DNA of 64,000 bases from contig OX597838.1 of the NCBI GenBank assembly GCA_951406725.2, positions 6,758,001-6,822,000 of the forward strand. The letters are read 5' to 3'. Position 1 is the first letter of the stretch; each line of letters starts with the position of its first letter. This document shows positions 3,712 to 61,360 of this stretch, one piece after another. The translations under genes were made by a program, and so were the position numbers. The DNA is from Octopus vulgaris. Taxonomy: Eukaryota. Below the pieces are notes generated by a model. It had not been told where the DNA came from and did no database searches. It saw only the letters and a list, made by a program, of their open reading frames with translations.

Positions 3712-4279
3712 GGCGGCGAGCTGGCAGAAACGTTAGCACACCAGACGAAATGCTTAGCGGTATTTCGTCTGCCGTTACGTTCTGAGCTCAAATTCCGCTG
3801 AGGTCGATTTTGCCATTCACCTTTCGGGGTCGATTAAATAAGTACCACTTACGCACTGGGGTCGATATAATCGACTTAATCCGTTTGTCTGTCCTTGTTT
3901 GTCCTCTCTCTGTTTAACCCCTAGTGGGTAGTAAAGAAATAGGTACTTCGTCTGTCGTTACGTTCTGAGCTCAAATTCCGCTAAGGTCTACTTTGCCTTT
4001 CACCTTTCGGGGTCGAAAAATAAGTACCAGTTACGCACTGGGGTCGATATAATCGACTTAGTTCATGTGTCTGTCCTTGTTTGTTCTCTCTATGTTTAGC
4101 CCCTTGTGGGCAATAAAGAAATAGGTACTTAGTCTGCCGTTACGTTCTGAGCTCAGATTCCACCGAGGTCGACTTTGCCTTTCCGGGTCGATAAATTAAG
4201 TACCAGTTACTAACTGGGGTCGAGCTAATCGACTGTCTCCCACCCGAAAACATTTCGGGCCTTGTGCCTAGAGTGGAGA
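3712..4279 (+). mobile_element. Tandem trimer of SINE family A
   Basis: One head followed by three repeats of CGTTCTGAGCTCAAATTCC..GAGGTCGACTTTGCCTTT..GGGGTCGA..AAGTACCAG..CTGGGGTCGA (units start near 3760, 3942 and 4123). Confidence 0.9.
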
Positions 4280-9078: not shown

Positions 9079-9375
<297 letters not shown>

Positions 9376-9385
9376 GGTAGACATG

Positions 9386-9524
9386 TACTTTCTGTTTCCC
9401 AGGTATCTAATCACAATGCTTTGGACGATGCCATAGTTGAAGATAGTTGGCCAAAGTGCCGCGCAATGGGACTGAACCCAAGTGCAAGTTGTCGAGAAAT
9501 AAGCTTCTGACCTCAGAGCCACAC
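9386..9524 (-). mobile_element. Degraded 5' part of SINE family B
   Basis: CCAAAGTGCCGCGCAATGGGACTGAACCC resembles 26015-26045. Confidence 0.7.
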
Positions 9525-9594
9525 CAGTTTAATATCATTCTGGAAAGTTCTATCACGAGAGAAAATGCTGTATATTATTAACTGATATCAGTCG

Positions 9595-9800
9595 ATTATG
9601 ACGATGGGCGTTTCAGCGGATGCGACCAGCGGAACAATCTGCTCGTGAAGTAAACGTGCAAGTTTGCTAACTACTCCACAGTCACGTGTGGGAAGCTTAC
9701 TTCCCGATAACCTGTACATGGGTTCAGTTCGACTGTGCGGCACTTTGTCCAAGTATCTTCAATGCTGGCCTCGATGCAACCAAAGCACTGTGAGTAGATA
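9595..9800. mobile_element. SINE C tail fragment (minus, about 9595-9690) abutting a SINE B head fragment (plus, about 9706-9800)
   Basis: CTGCTCGTGAAGTAAACGTGCAAG is the reverse complement of the family C tail; GGGTTCAGTTCGACTGTGCGGCACTTTG matches the family B B-box region. Confidence 0.6.
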
Positions 9801-9838
9801 TCGGCGAGATAAAAGCATTATCTATCTATCTATCTATA

Positions 9839-9873
<35 letters not shown>

Positions 9874-10159
9874 ATGTCTGTCTAGCTAACTAGCACTCCG
9901 TCTGTCTATGTATCTATCTATCCATCTATCTATCTATCCATCTATCTATCTATCTATCTATCTATCCATATATATGTGTGTCTAGCTAACTAGCACTCCA
10001 TCTGTCTATGTATCTATCTATCCATCTATCTACCTCTATATCTATCTATCCATCTATCTATATATTTATCTATTTATCTTTCTATATATCTATCCATCTA
10101 TCAATCTATTATCTACCTCTCAGTGTGACACACAATCTGACACAGCTGGCCCCTTTAAC

Positions 10160-10986: not shown

Positions 10987-11467
10987 CCCTTCCTTTACTG
11001 ACTGCTATATCGTCAAACTTCTTTGTGCGTGTTTTCTGACAATAAATAACGATTTTTCTTTTTCCGAATTTTTTTCTTTCCTTAAAGTTTGCTGCATTGC
11101 TATCAAAGTTTCTATTTTGTCGTTCTTTATAATGTTTTTTTTTTTATGTTGTGTTGTTATTCTAAATTGAAACTTTTTCCTAGGTGTTATCTCACTTTGT
11201 GTGTGTTGAATGTAAACACAAAATAACATCTTAACAAAAAAAAAAATTGTATAAACTCTAGAAAGAAAATTCCTAATTTTTTTTTTTTTGTAATCGAGAT
11301 ACGTCAGAGAAGTTCTCTGAATGAGATATCAAAAACATACTCTGAAGGAGATTTGAAAAACAAACAACATCATAAAACATAAGATATCATTTAAGGCTTG
11401 CTTATAAAAATAATAGATTCTATAATGAATGGCAACATCGCAAACATTTCCTCGTCAAAAGTACTTC

Positions 11468-11648
<181 letters not shown>

Positions 11649-11948
11649 GGAGCACTAGAAATGATCAAGAAGGGAACCGAAAATTATATGAGAATGATCC
11701 CTGGCTTACCATCCCTGCAAGAAGTGCAAAAGATTGTCTTAACTGGTACATCACACGTATTGAGAAGAGCATTGTCGATGTGAGAACTATTACTACCCAT
11801 GTATTTTAATTTAACTTTAAAAAAAATTAACGAACTATTGAGTTTAGTTTAATGGCCTACAAATGTATACTATGAGTTACTTTGCCCTAGGAGTTGGGAA
11901 GACACTCGGCAAGAAATGGAAGCAAATTTGAAGGAAGAAGAAAAACCC
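11649..11948 (+). mobile_element. 5'-truncated 3' end of an RLE-type (R4/Dong-like) non-LTR retrotransposon
   Basis: Translates GALEMIKKGTENYMRMIPGLPSLQEVQKIVLTGTSHVLRRALSM* (the IGALG...LQK..L.GT..ILR C-terminus of RLE elements), then about 165 bp of 3'UTR; (TAA)n on both sides. Confidence 0.8.
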
Positions 11949-15821: not shown

Positions 15822-15856
15822 CGCAGGGGCGGGGTTGTGGCAAGAAGCTTGCTTCC
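15821..15856 (+). mobile_element. Isolated 5' head of SINE family B, broken after AAGAAGCTTGCTTCC
   Basis: GCGCAGGGGCGGGGTTGTGGCAAGAAGCTTGCTTCC aligns with the minus-strand head at 28335-28297 (GAGCAGGAGTGGCTGTGTGGTAAGTAGCTTGCTAACCA). Confidence 0.7.
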
Positions 15857-16150
15857 GCCTCGGTTGTGTCAGGGCTGCTCTTACACTGCAGAAGTCGCCA
15901 CGCTGGTGTACACCTGGCGAAATATTGATTGAAAAAGAAGCTCAGCTCTCATGTAAGACTTTTGCTTCTTGGGATCCAGTGGTTGCTTGTTGTTTGCTGT
16001 ATTATATTTTGTACAAACAAGAAATCCTCATTGGATTCTGGACTCTGGTCTGCCTTCATTTGGGCAAAATTGTTAACTATTAAGTGAATTATTTTGGTGG
16101 GTGGATCTTCTGTTGCCATAAACTGTGGATTGTTTTCTGCTGTTGTGAAG

Positions 16151-16390
16151 ATTATGACCTGCATACGGGATACCGAAATTATGACCTGTATACGGGATAC
16201 CGAATGGCCTCCACAGATAGCTGTGGAGGTCATAACGTTGCCCGCGTTGCAAAGGCTGAAGAAGGCCAATGAGGAATATCGCTTGTGGCCGGGCGGCCCC
16301 GTCACATCACCTGCTTTGTGTTTGAGTGAGGCGTGGGAAATGCATTTATATTGGATAACACCATACAAAATTCTGGTGCATCTAACTTAA
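16151..16390 (+). pseudogene. Relic of a retroelement ORF1 C-terminal domain, homologous to 26372-26660
   Basis: DTEWPPQIAVEVITLPALQRLKKANEEYRLWPG..LSEAW aligns with DPEWPPQVAVEAVAFDVTLGLKELNEDYNLVPG..LREAW; it begins with a 27-bp tandem duplication (16151-16177 and 16178-16204). Confidence 0.8.
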
Positions 16391-16424
16391 GTACCATATT
16401 CCTTTGAATCTAAATTTTGCTGAA

Positions 16425-25660: not shown

Positions 25661-25874
25661 TACTCTTTCAATTTACTTATTTCAGTCATTTGACTGCGGC
25701 CATGCTGGAGCACCGCCTTTAATCGAGCAACTCGACCCCGGGACTTATTCTCCGTAAGCCCAATACTTATTCTACCGGTCTCTTTTTTGCCGAACCGCTA
25801 AGTGACGGGGACGTAAACACACCAGCATCGGTTGTCAAGCAATGCTAGGCGGACAAACACAGACACACAAACAT

Positions 25875-25934
<60 letters not shown>

Positions 25935-26074
25935 GACAGGCTTCTTTCAGTTTCCATCTACCAAATCCACTCACAAGGCATTGGTCGGCCCAGGGCTATA
26001 GCAGAAGACACTTGCCCAAGATGCCACGCAGTGGGACTGAACCCGGAACCATGTGGTTGGTTAGCAAGCTACTT
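25661..26074 (-). mobile_element. SINE family B body and tail (its head is displaced to 28297-28335 by an insertion)
   Basis: Family B tail, internal (AT)n and the GGTTCCGGGTTCAGTCCC region on the minus strand; the sequence resumes after the second TSD copy. Confidence 0.9.
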
Positions 26075-26245
26075 TATTTCAAAACATTTGCCATAAAGGC
26101 AGTACACAGATTAAGTTAGCTTTGCGGGCTGGACGAGGACATTAATGAGGTGAATGATAATGAAAGAAAGATGATAAGGATGGGAGAAGACAGAAAGCGC
26201 CCGCCGACTTTTGCTTCTCTAAAACATTGTTCTTTTTAAAAAAGA

Positions 26246-26372
26246 TTAACACAAAACGAGGTATTAAACCTCTTACAATTTTTCCAATTTTGGGCTTAGC
26301 AGTCCATTATTAATACAAAACGAGGTATTAATCCTCTTACAATTTTTCAATTTTTGGACTTAAGTCCATTAC
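26246..26372. repeat. About 63-bp tandem duplication in the element 3'UTR
   Basis: ACAAAACGAGGTATTAA..CTCTTACAATTTTTC..AGTCCATTA occurs twice. Confidence 0.85.
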
Positions 26373-27612
26373 TAATAATACATATCGTCCTCGAAATAGC
26401 TTGTGCCCGCGCCCTCCACCATCAACCACGCCTCCCTCAGAACGTAGTCAAGTTCCGAGTTCGCGTCGCCCGGGACCAAGTTATAGTCTTCATTGAGCTC
26501 CTTTAGCCCTAGCGTCACGTCGAACGCCACGGCCTCCACAGCTACCTGCGGAGGCCATTCGGGGTCCTGTGTGAAGGCTAAAGGTGCTCCCTTGTAGTGC
26601 TCTTCCATCACTTTTTCAATTTCTCTTCCTCTATAGAAGAGGACCAATACATTCAGTTCTTTCGTTGGCGGCACAGTTTCCGCCAACGGTATTCCTTCTC
26701 TTGTCGGTGGCACAACCCCAACCGACGTAGTTCCGCGACATTCCGGTGCCACACTGACAGCCGGCAACACGTTTTTCTTCCTCTTTTTCTTTTTTTTTCC
26801 CTTTTCAACTGAGGGAGGGTGCGTCTCCTCCGTGGCTGGAAGATTCGCCCTCCTCTCCTCATCCCTATTATCCTTTGGTGAGCACCCATTGTTGCTCACC
26901 TTCCTCTTTCGGCCTCTGCTTGAGGAGTCCTCTGCTTTCTCGGCCGTTATCGTTCCCTCTTCTAGAGGGGTTTTACTTAACTGTTCCGGGATCCTATTTT
27001 GTTCCCGAGGACAGTTCTTCTTTATGTGGCCGGACTCCAAGCACCGATGACACTTAGGGGGCGACCCTCAAGGATCACCGGGTACCTGCACCCGGCCATT
27101 TTCAAAAAATCTGGAAAAACCAGATTGGCTGATTGGGTCCACAGGGTCAAAACTGCTTTCGAGCCAACCCAAGCAGCCGCAGGAAGAACTTTTACATTGA
27201 GGAGCTTAGTTTCGCTGTCACCCAGACCCCGGCGGATAGTCTCCTCTATCCACTCGGGTTCTATGTCGGGTGGCAGTCCGCAGATCCAAGCTTTCATTAA
27301 TTTCTTTTTTTTGTAAGTGGGCAGGAATAAGATTTCCTTACCCTCCAAGGGTTCGCTAGCAAATTTGCAAGCCTCTTCAGGGGTGTCAAACAGCAACCAC
27401 ACCGTTCCATATTTGACACCCCTGGAAATGAATTTAATTGTTGGCAAATACTCCTCCAACTCCTCCTCAATTGCCGTCTTTTCGAATAGGGCGATGGTGT
27501 CAAGTGCCTTGGAGTAGGTTCTCAACACCACCGTCCTATCTTCACGGTCCTTCAACCACTTTTTGGGTGGTATGATTTCCCACTCCAAAACTTTGTTATT
27601 TTTCATTGCCAT
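26372..27612 (-). pseudogene. ORF1/gag-like nucleic-acid-binding protein (about 413 aa if repaired), with one frameshift near 27057-27061
   Basis: ORFs 27022..27612 and 26372..27040 join with one extra C: ..VILEGRPPK-CHRCLESGHIKKNC (CX2CX4HX4C). The N-terminal part is RRM-like, followed by a basic linker (RGRKRK, KKKKKRKK) and a C-terminal WPPQVAVE domain. Confidence 0.85.
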
Positions 27613-28296
27613 GTTTTTTAAAAAATATATTCAAATTAGACTCAAAAGCAGGAAGAAAAAAGTTCAAAAGTCTAAATAAATTTGATAGATTTTTGAAAAA
27701 ACAAAAAGGAGAAAGCACAACAGAAGGGAAGAAATTAACGGAAAGTCGCAATAAAGAAAAAACAAATGGGGGGGGGGGGGGGTAAATGAAGTTCAATAGA
27801 AAGTTAATAAACAGAAAAAACACAGCAAAAATATTCTGCGGTACTCCCGGCCTGGGTTGAACCTGGAACGCCGCAACTGCAACACAACCTCCACAAAAAT
27901 GGGTCCGAAAGGTAATCCAATAGTGGCTTATTTTTATACTTTTCTTGCGAAGTACTCTGACAAGGGAATAAATTCAGCAAACTCAAACACAGCACTGGTT
28001 ACTGCCAACGGTAATTTTAACAGTAACTGTATTGAATCCTGAGTATACGCCCCTCCACTGTTTTTTCTTTTTTTTTTTTTTCAATGAACACAAAAACGGC
28101 AGCCGCCTAGCGCAGGCGAAATTGTCTGAGTTGAACACAACCTACTGAAATAATAATTGGCACGCAATAAATTATGCCCAACTCACAATAAACAAAATCA
28201 CTTACCTCGACAACTTTCCGTTTTTGGTCTTTTTTCTTCAGTTGGACTCACGTCCACTCTAGCTCAACAAGAAGCAACCGACTAACTGCGCATGTC

Positions 28297-28335
28297 TGGT
28301 TAGCAAGCTACTTACCACACAGCCACTCCTGCTCC
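28297..28335 (-). mobile_element. 5' head of the interrupted SINE B
   Basis: Minus strand GGAGCAGGAGTGGCTGTGTGGTAAGTAGCTTGCTAACCA (A-box like). Confidence 0.85.
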
Positions 28336-34717: not shown

Positions 34718-35219
34718 TTGACCTACGTAACGTATAAAGGCCATTTATAAAATATATAAATTATTATTTGTTGAATATGTTGACTAAATTATTTTCAATC
34801 CTGTCCCGATGTGCCGAAGACTTTGTCACAACGATGTTTATTACAGAAAATATGTAATTGCATTTATTTGGAAGGTAAATTTTATTCATAATCCTCGATA
34901 CACTCCCATACATTCATACATACACGTGGGCGTGTGTGTAAACATACATATATACCTACATACATAGGGCAGGCTTCTTTCATTTTGCGTTCCACTTTCA
35001 CTTAAAATGTATTTGGTCGGCACCGGGCGAGAGAAAAATATACATGCTGGAGCATCTTCGCTCTGGAAATGAAGCAGGAAACACATCATTAAAAATAAAG
35101 CATTTGGACGACACATCCACCCCTGCTCATATATTTTTAATACCGGGATAAATCATTGCACAAGACAGAGTATGGATTTACCAAATTCTTATCGCTATTC
35201 TAAACATCACTCAGACATT

Positions 35220-37149: not shown

Positions 37150-37365
37150 TGGTTCAGCTTCGCTGCGCTGCTCCCTTGGAAAAATATATTTTTCTATAGC
37201 ACCGGGCCGTGAAAAGCCCTGCTAGTAGACTTGGGTAAAAGAAACTGAAAGAAACCCGTCGTATACATATAAATGTATAGTGCTTGGACCGATTTGTTTG
37301 ACTAAATCCATCAGAGTAGTGCTGAGCATGGACGCATTCCAAAGACTGAAACGAACAAAAGAGGA
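37150..37365 (+). mobile_element. Degraded SINE family B
   Basis: GAAACTGAAAGAAACCCGTCGTATA and GCTGAGCATGG..GACTGAAACGAACAAAAGA. Confidence 0.65.
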
Positions 37366-38769
37366 GTAAATTTATATAAGCCTAAGATCTTTGGAACCAA
37401 ATAAAAAAAAACTTGTAGAAAACACAAAAAATCTCCCGCAAATATAACCCAGCCGCCACACATAAGGGATAACTACACTAGATGAAACAATGCTGCTTGA
37501 CCTGGAGAAAGTTGTACAGGGGTTAATTCTTTCAAAAAAATGTCTTCAAGGCCGAGCACCAATATGGCCGAAGTTTAATGACTGTAACAAATAAAATAAA
37601 AAGATGAAAGCAAAAGATAACTCACACACACACACACACACACACACATAGCTATCACGTAACCGTTTTAAATTGTGTCAGTTGTTTCCCGTTATATGAT
37701 TTAGTTTCTCAATTCTCTGATAAGGCCAGTTCGTTCTGGCTTCATTCGCTTGTAAAACACCTGCCATCATTATTGACGGCACAGGTATTCTATTAGCTAC
37801 AACTGTTCATGACTATAAAATGGCTTCCAATTAACCTTGCAGCAACTTAGTTATATTTTGAGCTTATGTGATTGCACACCACTGTTTGATCAAGAAGGTT
37901 CTTTTTATTTGGTTTGTTTTAATTTGGTTCTCTTGTACTTTTCATATATTTCTTGACATTCTGTGATACAGTTTCGTTTCCTGCTAACAAATCAAATCAT
38001 CAATTTGTTTCCAAAACATCTAAACTTTCTCAAAAGTTAAGAATGCTAGATGCTCCACCAGATTGACTTTTAGCTGGAAAATATCAAGAAATCAATGTTT
38101 TTGCAGGAACAGTTTCTGATTGACTTCGATAATATACCTTAATAGGGAACCAGTCCGATGATCCGTTACTAAATTATATTCTACTCATTTCTATATTTCT
38201 ATTTTAGAAAGCATCGGTAGCTAAATCTCATGGTTCCAGCCTGACTGACTCTTCCTTCGACACTTGGATATTGAAAGCTAAATCTAGTAAGTATAATTAA
38301 TCTCATTGGTCGAGAAAATAATTAGGTAGGTTATAGTAAATTTGATTTTGTTGGAGTCACAGACCACGCTTTCTCTGGAAATAAGTTTCCGTTGATACAC
38401 ATATCATTTAAAATGTCATTGGAATATTTCGTCTTGTATTTTATAGATCTTGATTTCAACAGAAATTTCATAGACCATCCGGGTTTTTTTTTTCTTTTCG
38501 TATACGTTATAATAGAGGCTGTAGTTTGTCGATGGCTTACGAGTTTACTCTCACTTGACCAATTCAGGTGAGAATTACAACATACCATACTGAGTGTAAA
38601 ATGTCTTCCAGTTAACCTTACAATAATTGAAACGCTAAACTCTCTCCTTTCACCGAGCGTCAAGCTAATACATGTGTGGTGCACGTCGCCATGCTCTCCA
38701 TTTTAAATCGTTTCTTTATTCTCTCATTTCAATTGCATGTTTATTCGAATTGATTATAAACACACACAC

Positions 38770-53399: not shown

Positions 53400-55190
53400 G
53401 GGCCAGCAGTATTCTAGGCGTCGATTTTTAGAGGAAAAGAGGAGAACGACCACAACTTATTCACATCTTACTCGGAAACATCTGAGGATACAGGAGCTCA
53501 TCTTGACAGACATATCGACTTTATTGTGAATGGGGGCATTGCAGCTGAGACTGTTGACAATAGTCATTCTTAAGTCCCTGATACTAATAGGTACCGTGAG
53601 TTATTGCGTCGATGGAAGAGAATATTTGCGTCTTTCACTTTCGACTAAAGAAATTCAAGAAAATTCAGAATTTTTCTTTCTGGAAAACAAATTTAAATGG
53701 CAATATCTTTACCAACCAGCCGACCGAATTAAGGGTTTTTTAGTGGTTTTGAAAGGAGGGTGAGCAATTTAGTTATTCAGTAAACGAAAATCATACTTGC
53801 CCAAAATCGAAAATCTAGAAATACTACACACAGCCTCAGTAAGATCATCAGCATTAACAGTAACAACAGCATCAACAATTAAACGCAACACAAAAGAAAA
53901 CTCTACTACTACAACCATTCCTGCAGCAGCAGTCTTAAACCGCAGCAACTGCAATAAAAGTACGCATAAATCACCATCATCATTGCCGTAGTAGTTAGCA
54001 TTGGACTATACAACCGCAGCGACAACAATAACAGCAACATCAACACCTCGCTATTACCTCTCCCCAACATCAGCACCTCGCTATCCAAACACCCACTGCT
54101 ACTACTGTTACTAACTTTTTCAACACTACATCCATTCTTAATATTACCAAAGTGCAGGCCTGAAGCAACAACATAAAACAGAAAATTCTTCGAAATATTG
54201 GCAACACATTTCATCCACGTCTCTATGACAAAGAAAAAATACCCATTTAAAAATGTAGGAGACATATATATAACCTTTGTGGGTCGGGAGAATATGGCTC
54301 ACGTACAGGTTGTACCTTTCAACTTTCGGAAAATAAAGTAAAAATAGAATTACTCCCCAACTAATTGCTGGTATTGTTTTCAAAACTAGGTTATTGGGTG
54401 CATGGCACTCGAATGTTGCCAAGCGCTCACAGCCCTCTTCCAGTCAGGCAATGGAATCGGTGGATGTTTTTCTCTTTAGAAATTTATAGCGAACTAATGG
54501 CAGTAATTTTGACGAGGATCTCGGGGACACAGTTGGTGTTGACGCAAACAAACTGACCCGTCTGTTTTGGAGGACCTTCCTCTCGGGAACTATCACGGGT
54601 AATTTCCAGGTGTCCTCGACCTCGCGATGCTCCCCATGGACGCTACCGGTTCGAGATAAACTCTACAGGCATGGATGTGCTGTTAGACGGGCTTGTCCGA
54701 GTGACGAAACCGTTCTGCACGTACCCGTTCAGCATCCGGACATTTCTGACTTGTGGGGTTATGTCCAGCAGCTGCTGTCACGTGTGCGATGGATCTCTCT
54801 ATCGGCCGAGTCTACATCCTTTAATCATGCAGGCAAGACAGATTTCCTATGCCTGCTGGCTGTGGCGAAAATGATTGTTTGGTGGACGAAGCTCAGAAGC
54901 ATGAGAACTGATACATTCCTCTTTGGTAGAGCTGACTTCACCAAGTTTCAATTCTCCCCAAAAAAAGTGAGGGTGGAGAGAAAAGTTAAGTCCTCGAGCG
55001 AGTTCATTGAAAGGTGGGTGAAAGTTACAAAATGGCAAGAGTGGATGGTAACTGTCAAGTGTAGACCTTAGAGTCGGAGAAAGGGAATTGGAGAGAGCAG
55101 CTGCCCGTGGTATTCAGGGACATCTTGGACAATGAGGTTCCTCGATTATTCCTAGAGGTAATTCTGTATGAGATGGAAAATCATTCCCCA
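53400..55190 (+). mobile_element. Decayed, internally deleted L1/Tx1-clade LINE (ORF1 relic joined to the ORF2 C-terminus)
   Basis: RRFLEEKRRT..TYS and VVLKGG resemble KKWLKDREDRTVVLRTYS and VILEGR of the 27.6-kb ORF1; 54610-55071 gives LPVRDKLYRHG..CP..ETVLH..LW (zf-RVT-like ORF2 C-terminus); (TTA)n follows. Confidence 0.7.
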
Positions 55191-55769: not shown

Positions 55770-56800
55770 GAGAGCAAGATTGATTTCTGTTTGACACTAA
55801 TCTTTTATTTCCAAACGCGCCTTAACAATTTTTTGGATTTTCAAAGGGATTCATCCTCATTTCCCGATCACAATTGGCATCACTCTTTCTTTACTTTTCC
55901 GCATTCCAAGCAATCTCCACTTACAAAGCGGACTACTTCGTAATTTTTTATTTTTCTGCAAAATTCCAAACCTCTGTTTTATTCTTACTAAAATGCTACA
56001 CATCATCCATGTAGAGCAAATGGTAAAGACGCCATTTACTATTTCTTACCCGATGCCCTGATTTTAATTTTCTTAATACTAATCTAAAGTGGATTAAACA
56101 TAACACAAATATTAAAGGGGATAAACGAGTCTCCTTGTAAAATTCCTCTCTTTGATACTAACTTTCTCTACAGCTTTACCACCTGAGTAAAAATCGATTT
56201 TCCATTTCTTCATACTATAGCAAATAAAATCCCTTATGTTCTCTGTAATAAAGAATATTCTCAAGCATTCACCGATGCATGTTCGTGGAATTAGGTCATA
56301 GGGTTTCTTATAATCTCTCCTAGCTAGTGTTAAATTCTTATTTCTAGATTTCGCTACTTTTAGGACTGTATAACAGGTCATACATCCCTCTAGCTTTCTT
56401 CCGGTAAATTTCCTTCTTTTCAGGAAGTAAATTCTTGCTCTATCAAGGCGCTCATCGATGGTTTCTGGGCGTATTCCTGTTAATAAAGTCCACACGAATG
56501 TTAAGCAAGTGATTGGTCCATAATTAGTTGTTATATTGTTCATGATTTTCTCATTTACAAGGAGTAATGTTCTCTCTCTCCCCCTCTCTCTCTCTTTCTC
56601 TCTCTCTCTCTCCAGTTATCTAATTAAGTATAACTCCTCAATTCAGGCAATCCGGAAGTTCTTCCCTCAATCTCCCATGTAAATTATCAAATTTCTTTAA
56701 CCATTACCCTTGAACTATATCTGGACTTTTCCATTTCGACTTTCTTCCTAAGATTTCCTCTCATAATTTAAACTATCCTGAATCCGCAGTACTGGTTTAT
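55770..56800 (-). pseudogene. Decayed reverse transcriptase of an R4/Dong-like (RLE) non-LTR retrotransposon
   Basis: WLKKF..LH, NYGPITCL..W.LLTG, DYKKPYD, RGILQGD and HLLYMDD (YMDD at 56013-56002), with stops, frameshifts and an inserted (GA)n. Confidence 0.85.

Positions 56801-60459: not shown

Positions 60460-61360
<901 letters not shown>

Follow-up and report, generated by a model that had tools for sequence, protein, structure and literature searches.

Structure of the insert and of its target site

The window analyzed, a 64-kb stretch (64,000 nt) of the Octopus vulgaris contig OX597838.1, contained a SINE on the minus strand split into a short head and a longer remainder by an insert of 2222 bp (26075-28296, minus strand) lying between exact 17-bp target-site duplications (TSDs). 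The insert had the same orientation as its host SINE, in which it separated the A box from the B box. The features are given below in the order in which the minus strand is read, followed by a second locus on the plus strand, with the basis of each in brackets.

28314-28335, minus strand: host SINE 5' head with A-box-like motif (box motif, sequence alignment)
28297-28313, minus strand: 5' copy of the TSD, SINE sequence between A and B boxes (17-mer match, empty-site contigs)
27613-28296, minus strand: 5' region of 684 nt, T-rich (sequence layout)
27061-27612, minus strand: first piece of ORF1, 184 aa, ATG at 27612, two tandem RRM-like domains (AlphaFold, Foldseek)
27057-27061, minus strand: frameshift point, a 5-base homopolymer run (frames, contigs, protein relatives)
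26372-27061, minus strand: second piece of ORF1, 229 aa plus stop at 26374-26372 (other frame than the RRMs)
26245-26377, minus strand: two tandem 64-bp units from the ORF1 stop onward, absent from the initial annotation (repeat search)
26075-26371, minus strand: 3' region of 297 nt, ending in GAAATA, without poly(A) (sequence layout)
26058-26074, minus strand: 3' copy of the TSD, whose first two A's form AATAAA with the element end (17-mer match)
25670-26057, minus strand: host SINE remainder with B-box-like motif, body, microsatellite, and tail (box motif, sequence alignment)
16170-16390, plus strand: decayed, diverged relative of the C-terminal part of ORF1 (73% DNA identity over 104 nt, E 2e-11; 36% amino acid identity over 67 residues)

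The 17-mer TGGTTAGCAAGCTACTT occurred exactly twice in the whole window (26058-26074 and 28297-28313), and two matches were obtained in 0 of 100 shuffles even with three mismatches permitted. Contigs from all four aligned runs carried the SINE uninterrupted across the insertion site, thus identifying the 17-mer as duplicated target. In the host SINE, box patterns placed an A-box-like motif at 28325-28315, immediately before the insert, and, 15 nt downstream of the 3' TSD, a B-box-like motif at 26042-26034 (both on the minus strand). The 17-mer search and the box motifs agreed with the initial annotation, which had described a 2222-bp insert with identical 17-bp flanking repeats splitting a SINE. 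As for the end of the element, the lack of poly(A) reported there was confirmed, whereas the insert proper ends in GAAATA and the last two A's of GAAATAAA, the end previously given, belong to the TSD. Neither long terminal repeats (LTR) nor terminal inverted repeats (TIR) were found in the insert; the LTR/TRIM and DNA-transposon readings were ruled out for want of terminal repeats. The TSD and the absence of LTR and TIR are marks of target-primed reverse transcription.

ARAGORN reported no tRNA and Rfam nothing meaningful, so that the tRNA origin of the host SINE rests on its box motifs. Older copies of the same SINE family, 65-80% alike, were present at 9329-9881, 34944-35128, 37151-37595, and 60488-61348. 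A 182-bp unit in 2.6 tandem copies (3759-4234) was apparently another SINE-like repeat.

Upstream of ORF1, the 5' region presented a strong donor-like GT at 28205 and long pyrimidine tracts at 27620-27760 before the ATG (minus strand). The arrangement of these signals suggests a possible 5' UTR intron, and this putative intron was retained unspliced both in the window copy and in a long contig from run X2 described below. Downstream, the ORF1 stop was separated from the 3' end by 297 nt only, without detected endonuclease (EN) or reverse transcriptase (RT), and the X2 contig was alike down to 26248. Pfam revealed no EN or RT in the two ORF1 pieces or in two open frames of the 5' region, and the longest open frame of the 3' region had neither Pfam nor PDB match up to E 10; the absence of both enzymes from the element, already claimed in the initial annotation, was thus borne out for the frames scanned. 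The string KIGKIVRGL in the 3'-region frame resembles the start of APE domains, a weak lead without Pfam or PDB match. No stem-loop signal was detected in the last 176 nt (26075-26250; fold z 0.37). Each of the 64-bp units opened with a TAATG stop-start motif at the ORF1 stop. These units differed among copies, with contig indels at 26362, 26342, and 26287, and the first unit comes to resemble the second through a two-letter insertion at 26362.

ORF1 and its relatives

In the window copy a 1-base frameshift at 27057-27061 parted the RRMs from the CCHC knuckle and the C-terminus, at variance with the complete, single protein announced in the initial annotation. As written, the window copy is predicted to be unable to make the full ORF1 protein. 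Contigs from runs X2, X9, and X14 were one base longer at 27057-27061 (none such was listed for X1), and 10 of 37 related proteins matched on both sides of the break. This indicated a lesion or an assembly error and not the state of the family.

The AlphaFold model, built on an alignment of 25 sequences, displayed two beta-alpha-beta-beta-alpha-beta units (pLDDT 86), and the best PDB matches by Foldseek were tandem-RRM proteins such as hnRNP A1, HuR, and Sxl. The TM was about 0.3 over 18 matches with E no higher than 0.001 (best E 1.7e-4), so that the likeness to RRMs holds at the level of the domain. A single CX2CX4HX4C knuckle followed at 27052-27011, with a Pfam zf-CCHC E of 0.0037, under the cut-off; CCHC was detected in 8 of the 25 aligned ORF1 members. 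Both domain types of the RRM-like plus CCHC protein initially annotated were therefore present, but the RRM-like domains were two instead of one. The second piece continued with a charged linker containing a Lys/Arg run at about 26800-26774 and with a C-terminal part at about 26674-26375 (uninformative single-sequence model, pLDDT 41), whose 100 aa gave no homolog and no Atlas match. From the modeled domains, the protein is classed as a type I LINE ORF1 with two RRMs and one CCHC. In type I ORF1s the RRM or RRMs directly precede the CCHC, and they have been described in I, Jockey, R1, Tad1, plant L1, L2, and some CR1 elements (PMC4120745).

The representative protein search retrieved 34 relatives, 24-76% identical, a spread that fits transposable-element ORF1s, of which such diversity is expected. 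Ten relatives were looked up: seven were named, all of them from Octopus sinensis, O. vulgaris, or O. bimaculoides, and three were Logan records. The sole match among longer proteins was from O. sinensis, and the profile search A2 yielded P0002 as the only match among the 8000 best candidates. At the protein level none of 401 stretches from metagenome contigs was confirmed as a relative, and the DNA pattern had no relatives in metagenome contigs or prokaryote genomes. The distant relatives P0011, P0020, and P0035-P0037 came from Logan contigs that measured only 1.7-1.9 kb. This length is close to that of an ORF1-only unit and may hint at further ORF1-only families or merely reflect short contigs. 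In P0001, an O. sinensis gene model, the first residues of the ORF1 family were fused to a Gypsy-like integrase fragment; this is probably a chimeric annotation over nested elements.

Copies of the element in sequencing runs

The stretch or part of it was present in 20 of the 24 runs listed, from nine studies and two organisms, one of the 20 possibly being the source sample. In three DNA runs, summed depth was at least 3051, 476, and 4077 in every one of 24 element bins vs. 0-205 in two unique-flank bins of the same runs. Sixteen hand-picked contig rows reached 12-129 times the flank depth per contig (the X9 baseline of 15.7 being a contig depth and not a flank-bin depth), with rows of high depth at 26362, 26342, 26247, and 26238, just past the ORF1 stop, and contigs across the stop-to-3' region reached 12-103 times the flank depth in the three DNA runs; since depth is not copy number, and short contigs are no proof of long-range linkage, these values were taken only as tens of copies or more. 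Contigs that differed at 26247 extended about 30 nt to either side, so that their path enters the last part of the 3' region. The element is probably multi-copy and not a one-off.

The sole long contig with the structure of the insert (X2 record 24, from another study) had 2083 nt and aligned to 26248-28306 with 12 substitutions and 12 gap letters (99.4% alike); it could represent the window locus itself in another allele. It led from the 5' junction through an ORF1 that is open at the break into the same 3' region, without ORF2. None of the listed runs with the stretch is on record as RNA; run X2 is only guessed to be RNA, and its near-zero cover at 26111-26247 carries no evidential weight. 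An identity of 99.4% corresponds to about 0.8 Myr at a rate of 0.0036 per Myr (PMC13282606), a rough figure. Together with the perfect TSD, it fits the young age earlier attributed to the element. The window letters at 28134 and 28239 were found in no aligned contig of the four runs, where some differences are uncounted; the window copy may be private, or its letters at these two positions may be errors.

These data bear on whether one full-length LINE lost its ORF2 after insertion, the X2 contig being then an allele and the high depth coming from autonomous copies. We consider this improbable. It is true that one long contig alone carries the structure, that 10 nt of target are common to its 5' junction and that of the window, and that repair could have left the 64-bp duplication at the stop as a scar; nevertheless, the depth across the stop-to-3' region in three DNA runs does not suit such an event, and another copy is likelier than an allele, as the shared 10 nt are followed in X2 by 22 letters unlike the SINE head of the window and as the window letters at 28134 and 28239 occur in no aligned contig of the four runs. 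The multi-copy depth and the ORF1-to-3' junction without ORF2 in the X2 contig also make unlikely the case, contemplated in the initial annotation, of a single copy whose relatives all carry ORF2.

A second explanation concerns the 3' end, and we regard it as improbable to the same degree. The 297-nt 3' region would belong to an autonomous element, as the spacer that parts its ORF1 from its ORF2, and RNAs ending early at AATAAA would have been retrocopied with no separate non-autonomous lineage. The insert does end at AATAAA, and reads passing 26075 are masked by the depth of the SINE, whose reads swamped the loose ends (24 of 2234 listed). Poly(A) cleavage normally takes place 10-30 nt past the signal, whereas the insert ends at the signal itself and without poly(A). 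A TAATG-type stop-start motif links the ORFs of SART1 (PMC3894237), and a TAATG likewise follows the ORF1 stop here; this motif, however, lies at the stop itself, about 290 nt short of the element end, and opens no frame. Depth in the 3' region was 0.8-1.8 times that of ORF1, and in the 5' region 0.1-0.4 times, ratios that fit a true 3' end and are non-discriminating.

A family of retrocopies derived from a host gene, such as a domesticated, ZCCHC3-like ORF1, is very improbable: ZCCHC3-type RBD clusters are among the Atlas look-alikes of the closest relative (scores 0.89-0.90) and some relatives are annotated as Octopus genes, but the element lacks poly(A) and the other features of the processed host-gene copy considered in the initial annotation, its donor-like site and pyrimidine tracts stand unspliced in the 5' region, no parent gene was identified among the protein relatives, which are many, highly divergent, and often fragmentary, and the depth suggests tens of copies or more.

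Possible selection on ORF1

Among the 40 of 167 differences listed, 25 were located in ORF1 and 20 of these were carried by contigs of DNA runs. In this set of 20, a selected subset that leaves out five X2-dominated rows and pools short and autonomous copies, 11 differences were synonymous vs. 22% of sites expected (p 0.0014; p 0.044 with transitions only). Between the window ORF1 and the X2 contig, 3 of 7 differences were synonymous. The pattern of substitutions suggests that ORF1 is conserved within the family, and the synonymous excess may reflect selection on an autonomous ancestor.

Proposed origin and mode of transposition

The explanation that we find reasonably likely is that of a non-autonomous LINE family in Octopus which keeps its ORF1, like HAL1, HeT-A, or Ag-Sponge, is probably Tx1/L1-derived, and borrows ORF2p. 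Its ancestor would be an APE-type LINE, most likely a member of Tx1/L1, that lost ORF2 but kept its 5' region, ORF1, and 3' end. The 2.2-kb RNA, once transcribed, would make its own ORF1p in cis (two RRMs plus the knuckle), and this protein would coat the RNA and help it to join the RNP of an autonomous partner; being without a copying enzyme of its own, the element would have to borrow one. The ORF2p of the partner would then nick the target at 5'-CTACTT/AC, which we take to be a TT/A site like that of the L1 endonuclease, and start target-primed reverse transcription. The target's TT could prime synthesis by pairing with the terminal A's of the RNA, which would explain the absence of poly(A), and a second nick 17 bp away would yield the TSD. 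The window copy would represent a recent landing in a tRNA-type SINE, between its A box and its B box, after which one ORF1 base would have been lost, either in this copy or in the assembly only. The TAATG at the ORF1 stop, comparable to the motif of SART1, may be a vestige of the ORF2 start, with no ORF2 remnant matched by Pfam or PDB in the longest 3'-region frame.

With regard to the partner, Pfam gave no match to it or to a host exon in 57 of the 85 non-repetitive open frames of the window. The open frames at 54100-55100, 56112-56615, and 11376-11783 resemble a decayed mariner transposase (opposite strand) and non-LTR RT/RLE fragments; two of these three were scanned with Pfam, without match. 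For O. vulgaris, 13 L1-Tx1 families are reported as recently active, with 421 insertions that are nearly full-length (PMC13282606), and these families could be the source of ORF2p. A Tx1/L1 origin is not established by the ORF1, since type I ORF1s also occur in Jockey, I, R1, L2, and CR1.

Possible target preference

SINEs amount to 11.6% of the O. vulgaris genome (PMC13282606), so that one insertion in a SINE is unremarkable. Two observations nevertheless hint at a preference for SINE heads. A broken SINE head lay at 15823-15853 (plus strand; E 0.006) ahead of the decayed relative of the ORF1 C-terminal part, and it breaks within a few bases of the point at which the host SINE does; the intervening ~300 nt did not align with the element. 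This decayed locus (15823-16394, plus strand) holds a 27-bp tandem duplication of its own (16151-16204), and no second TSD was seen. The divergent 5' junction of the X2 contig could stem from an insertion into the same SINE position elsewhere in the genome, from an allele, or from adapter. Fixed insertion sites in other transposons or in small-RNA genes characterize many Tx1 families (PMC4494074). An active Tx1-derived ORF1-only family that uses a sequence-specific endonuclease of its partner, with a fixed site between the SINE A and B boxes, is conceivable, even if we judge it rather doubtful. In that event the SINE would be a renewable safe harbor whose Pol III promoter is broken at each insertion, a mobile element disabling the promoter of another, and autonomous LINE, ORF1-only hitchhiker, and SINE target would make up a parasite system of three tiers.

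Comparison with known ORF1-only elements

No ORF1-only LINE of Octopus or other cephalopods was found in the literature searched, including passages of PMC5753468, PMC9115989, PMC10294476, PMC8967140, PMC11203168, and PMC3747384; the family may be present as an unlabeled consensus in Repbase, Dfam, or the Zenodo library of PMC13282606, which comprises 80 L1-Tx1 consensus families. Such elements escape surveys based on RT, and Octopus gene sets contain their ORF1s as uncharacterized genes. A young multi-copy family whose ORF1 combines two RRMs with one knuckle would be a further, independent origin beside those known, and a comparison of selection on ORF1 between short and autonomous copies would bear on why keeping ORF1 pays for an RNA mobilized in trans. 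No general principle is changed by the Octopus element.

Non-autonomous LINEs with ORF1 present are listed for three clades, namely HeT-A (Jockey), HAL1 (L1), and Ag-Sponge (CR1) (PMC5786205). HAL1 of mammals resembles the Octopus element in coding for ORF1p only, in having kept both 5' and 3' ends, and in needing a foreign ORF2p (PMC5753468, PMC5786205). It derives from mammalian L1, with a type II ORF1 made up of a coiled coil, one RRM, and a CTD (PMC5203782), whereas the Octopus element has a type I ORF1, a copy without poly(A), and a cephalopod host. Among the 25 of 29 families listed for the 25 aligned ORF1 members there was no Transposase_22, and the ORF1 pieces of the window did not match it either; as its ORF1 is not type II, the element is not HAL1 proper.

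HeT-A of Drosophila and Ag-Sponge are, like the Octopus element, invertebrate and ORF1-only, and in elements of this kind the ORF1 protein is thought to multimerize with the proteins of a partner and to aid transposition (PMC5786205). ORF1s of the Jockey lineage are also type I but carry three knuckles vs. one here (PMC4120745), and HeT-A is telomeric, in contrast with the interstitial Octopus copy and its 17-bp TSD in a SINE head.

RRM/CCHC combinations have been called consistent with the Tx1 clade (PMC5203782), and the ORF1 of the Octopus element is in this sense consistent with Tx1-clade LINEs (Tx1, Keno, Kibi/Koshi, Tx1-Mar). TSDs in this clade are of similar length, with 16 bp for SINEU-3 (PMC4494074). 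Tx1 families are autonomous and defined by RT phylogeny, while the Octopus element has no RT, and a tRNA-SINE head is not among the Tx1-clade targets named in the parts of that source covered here (PMC4494074). Taken together, the ORF1-only concept is known from mammals and insects, and it is the lineage and the type of ORF1 that look new in the Octopus element.
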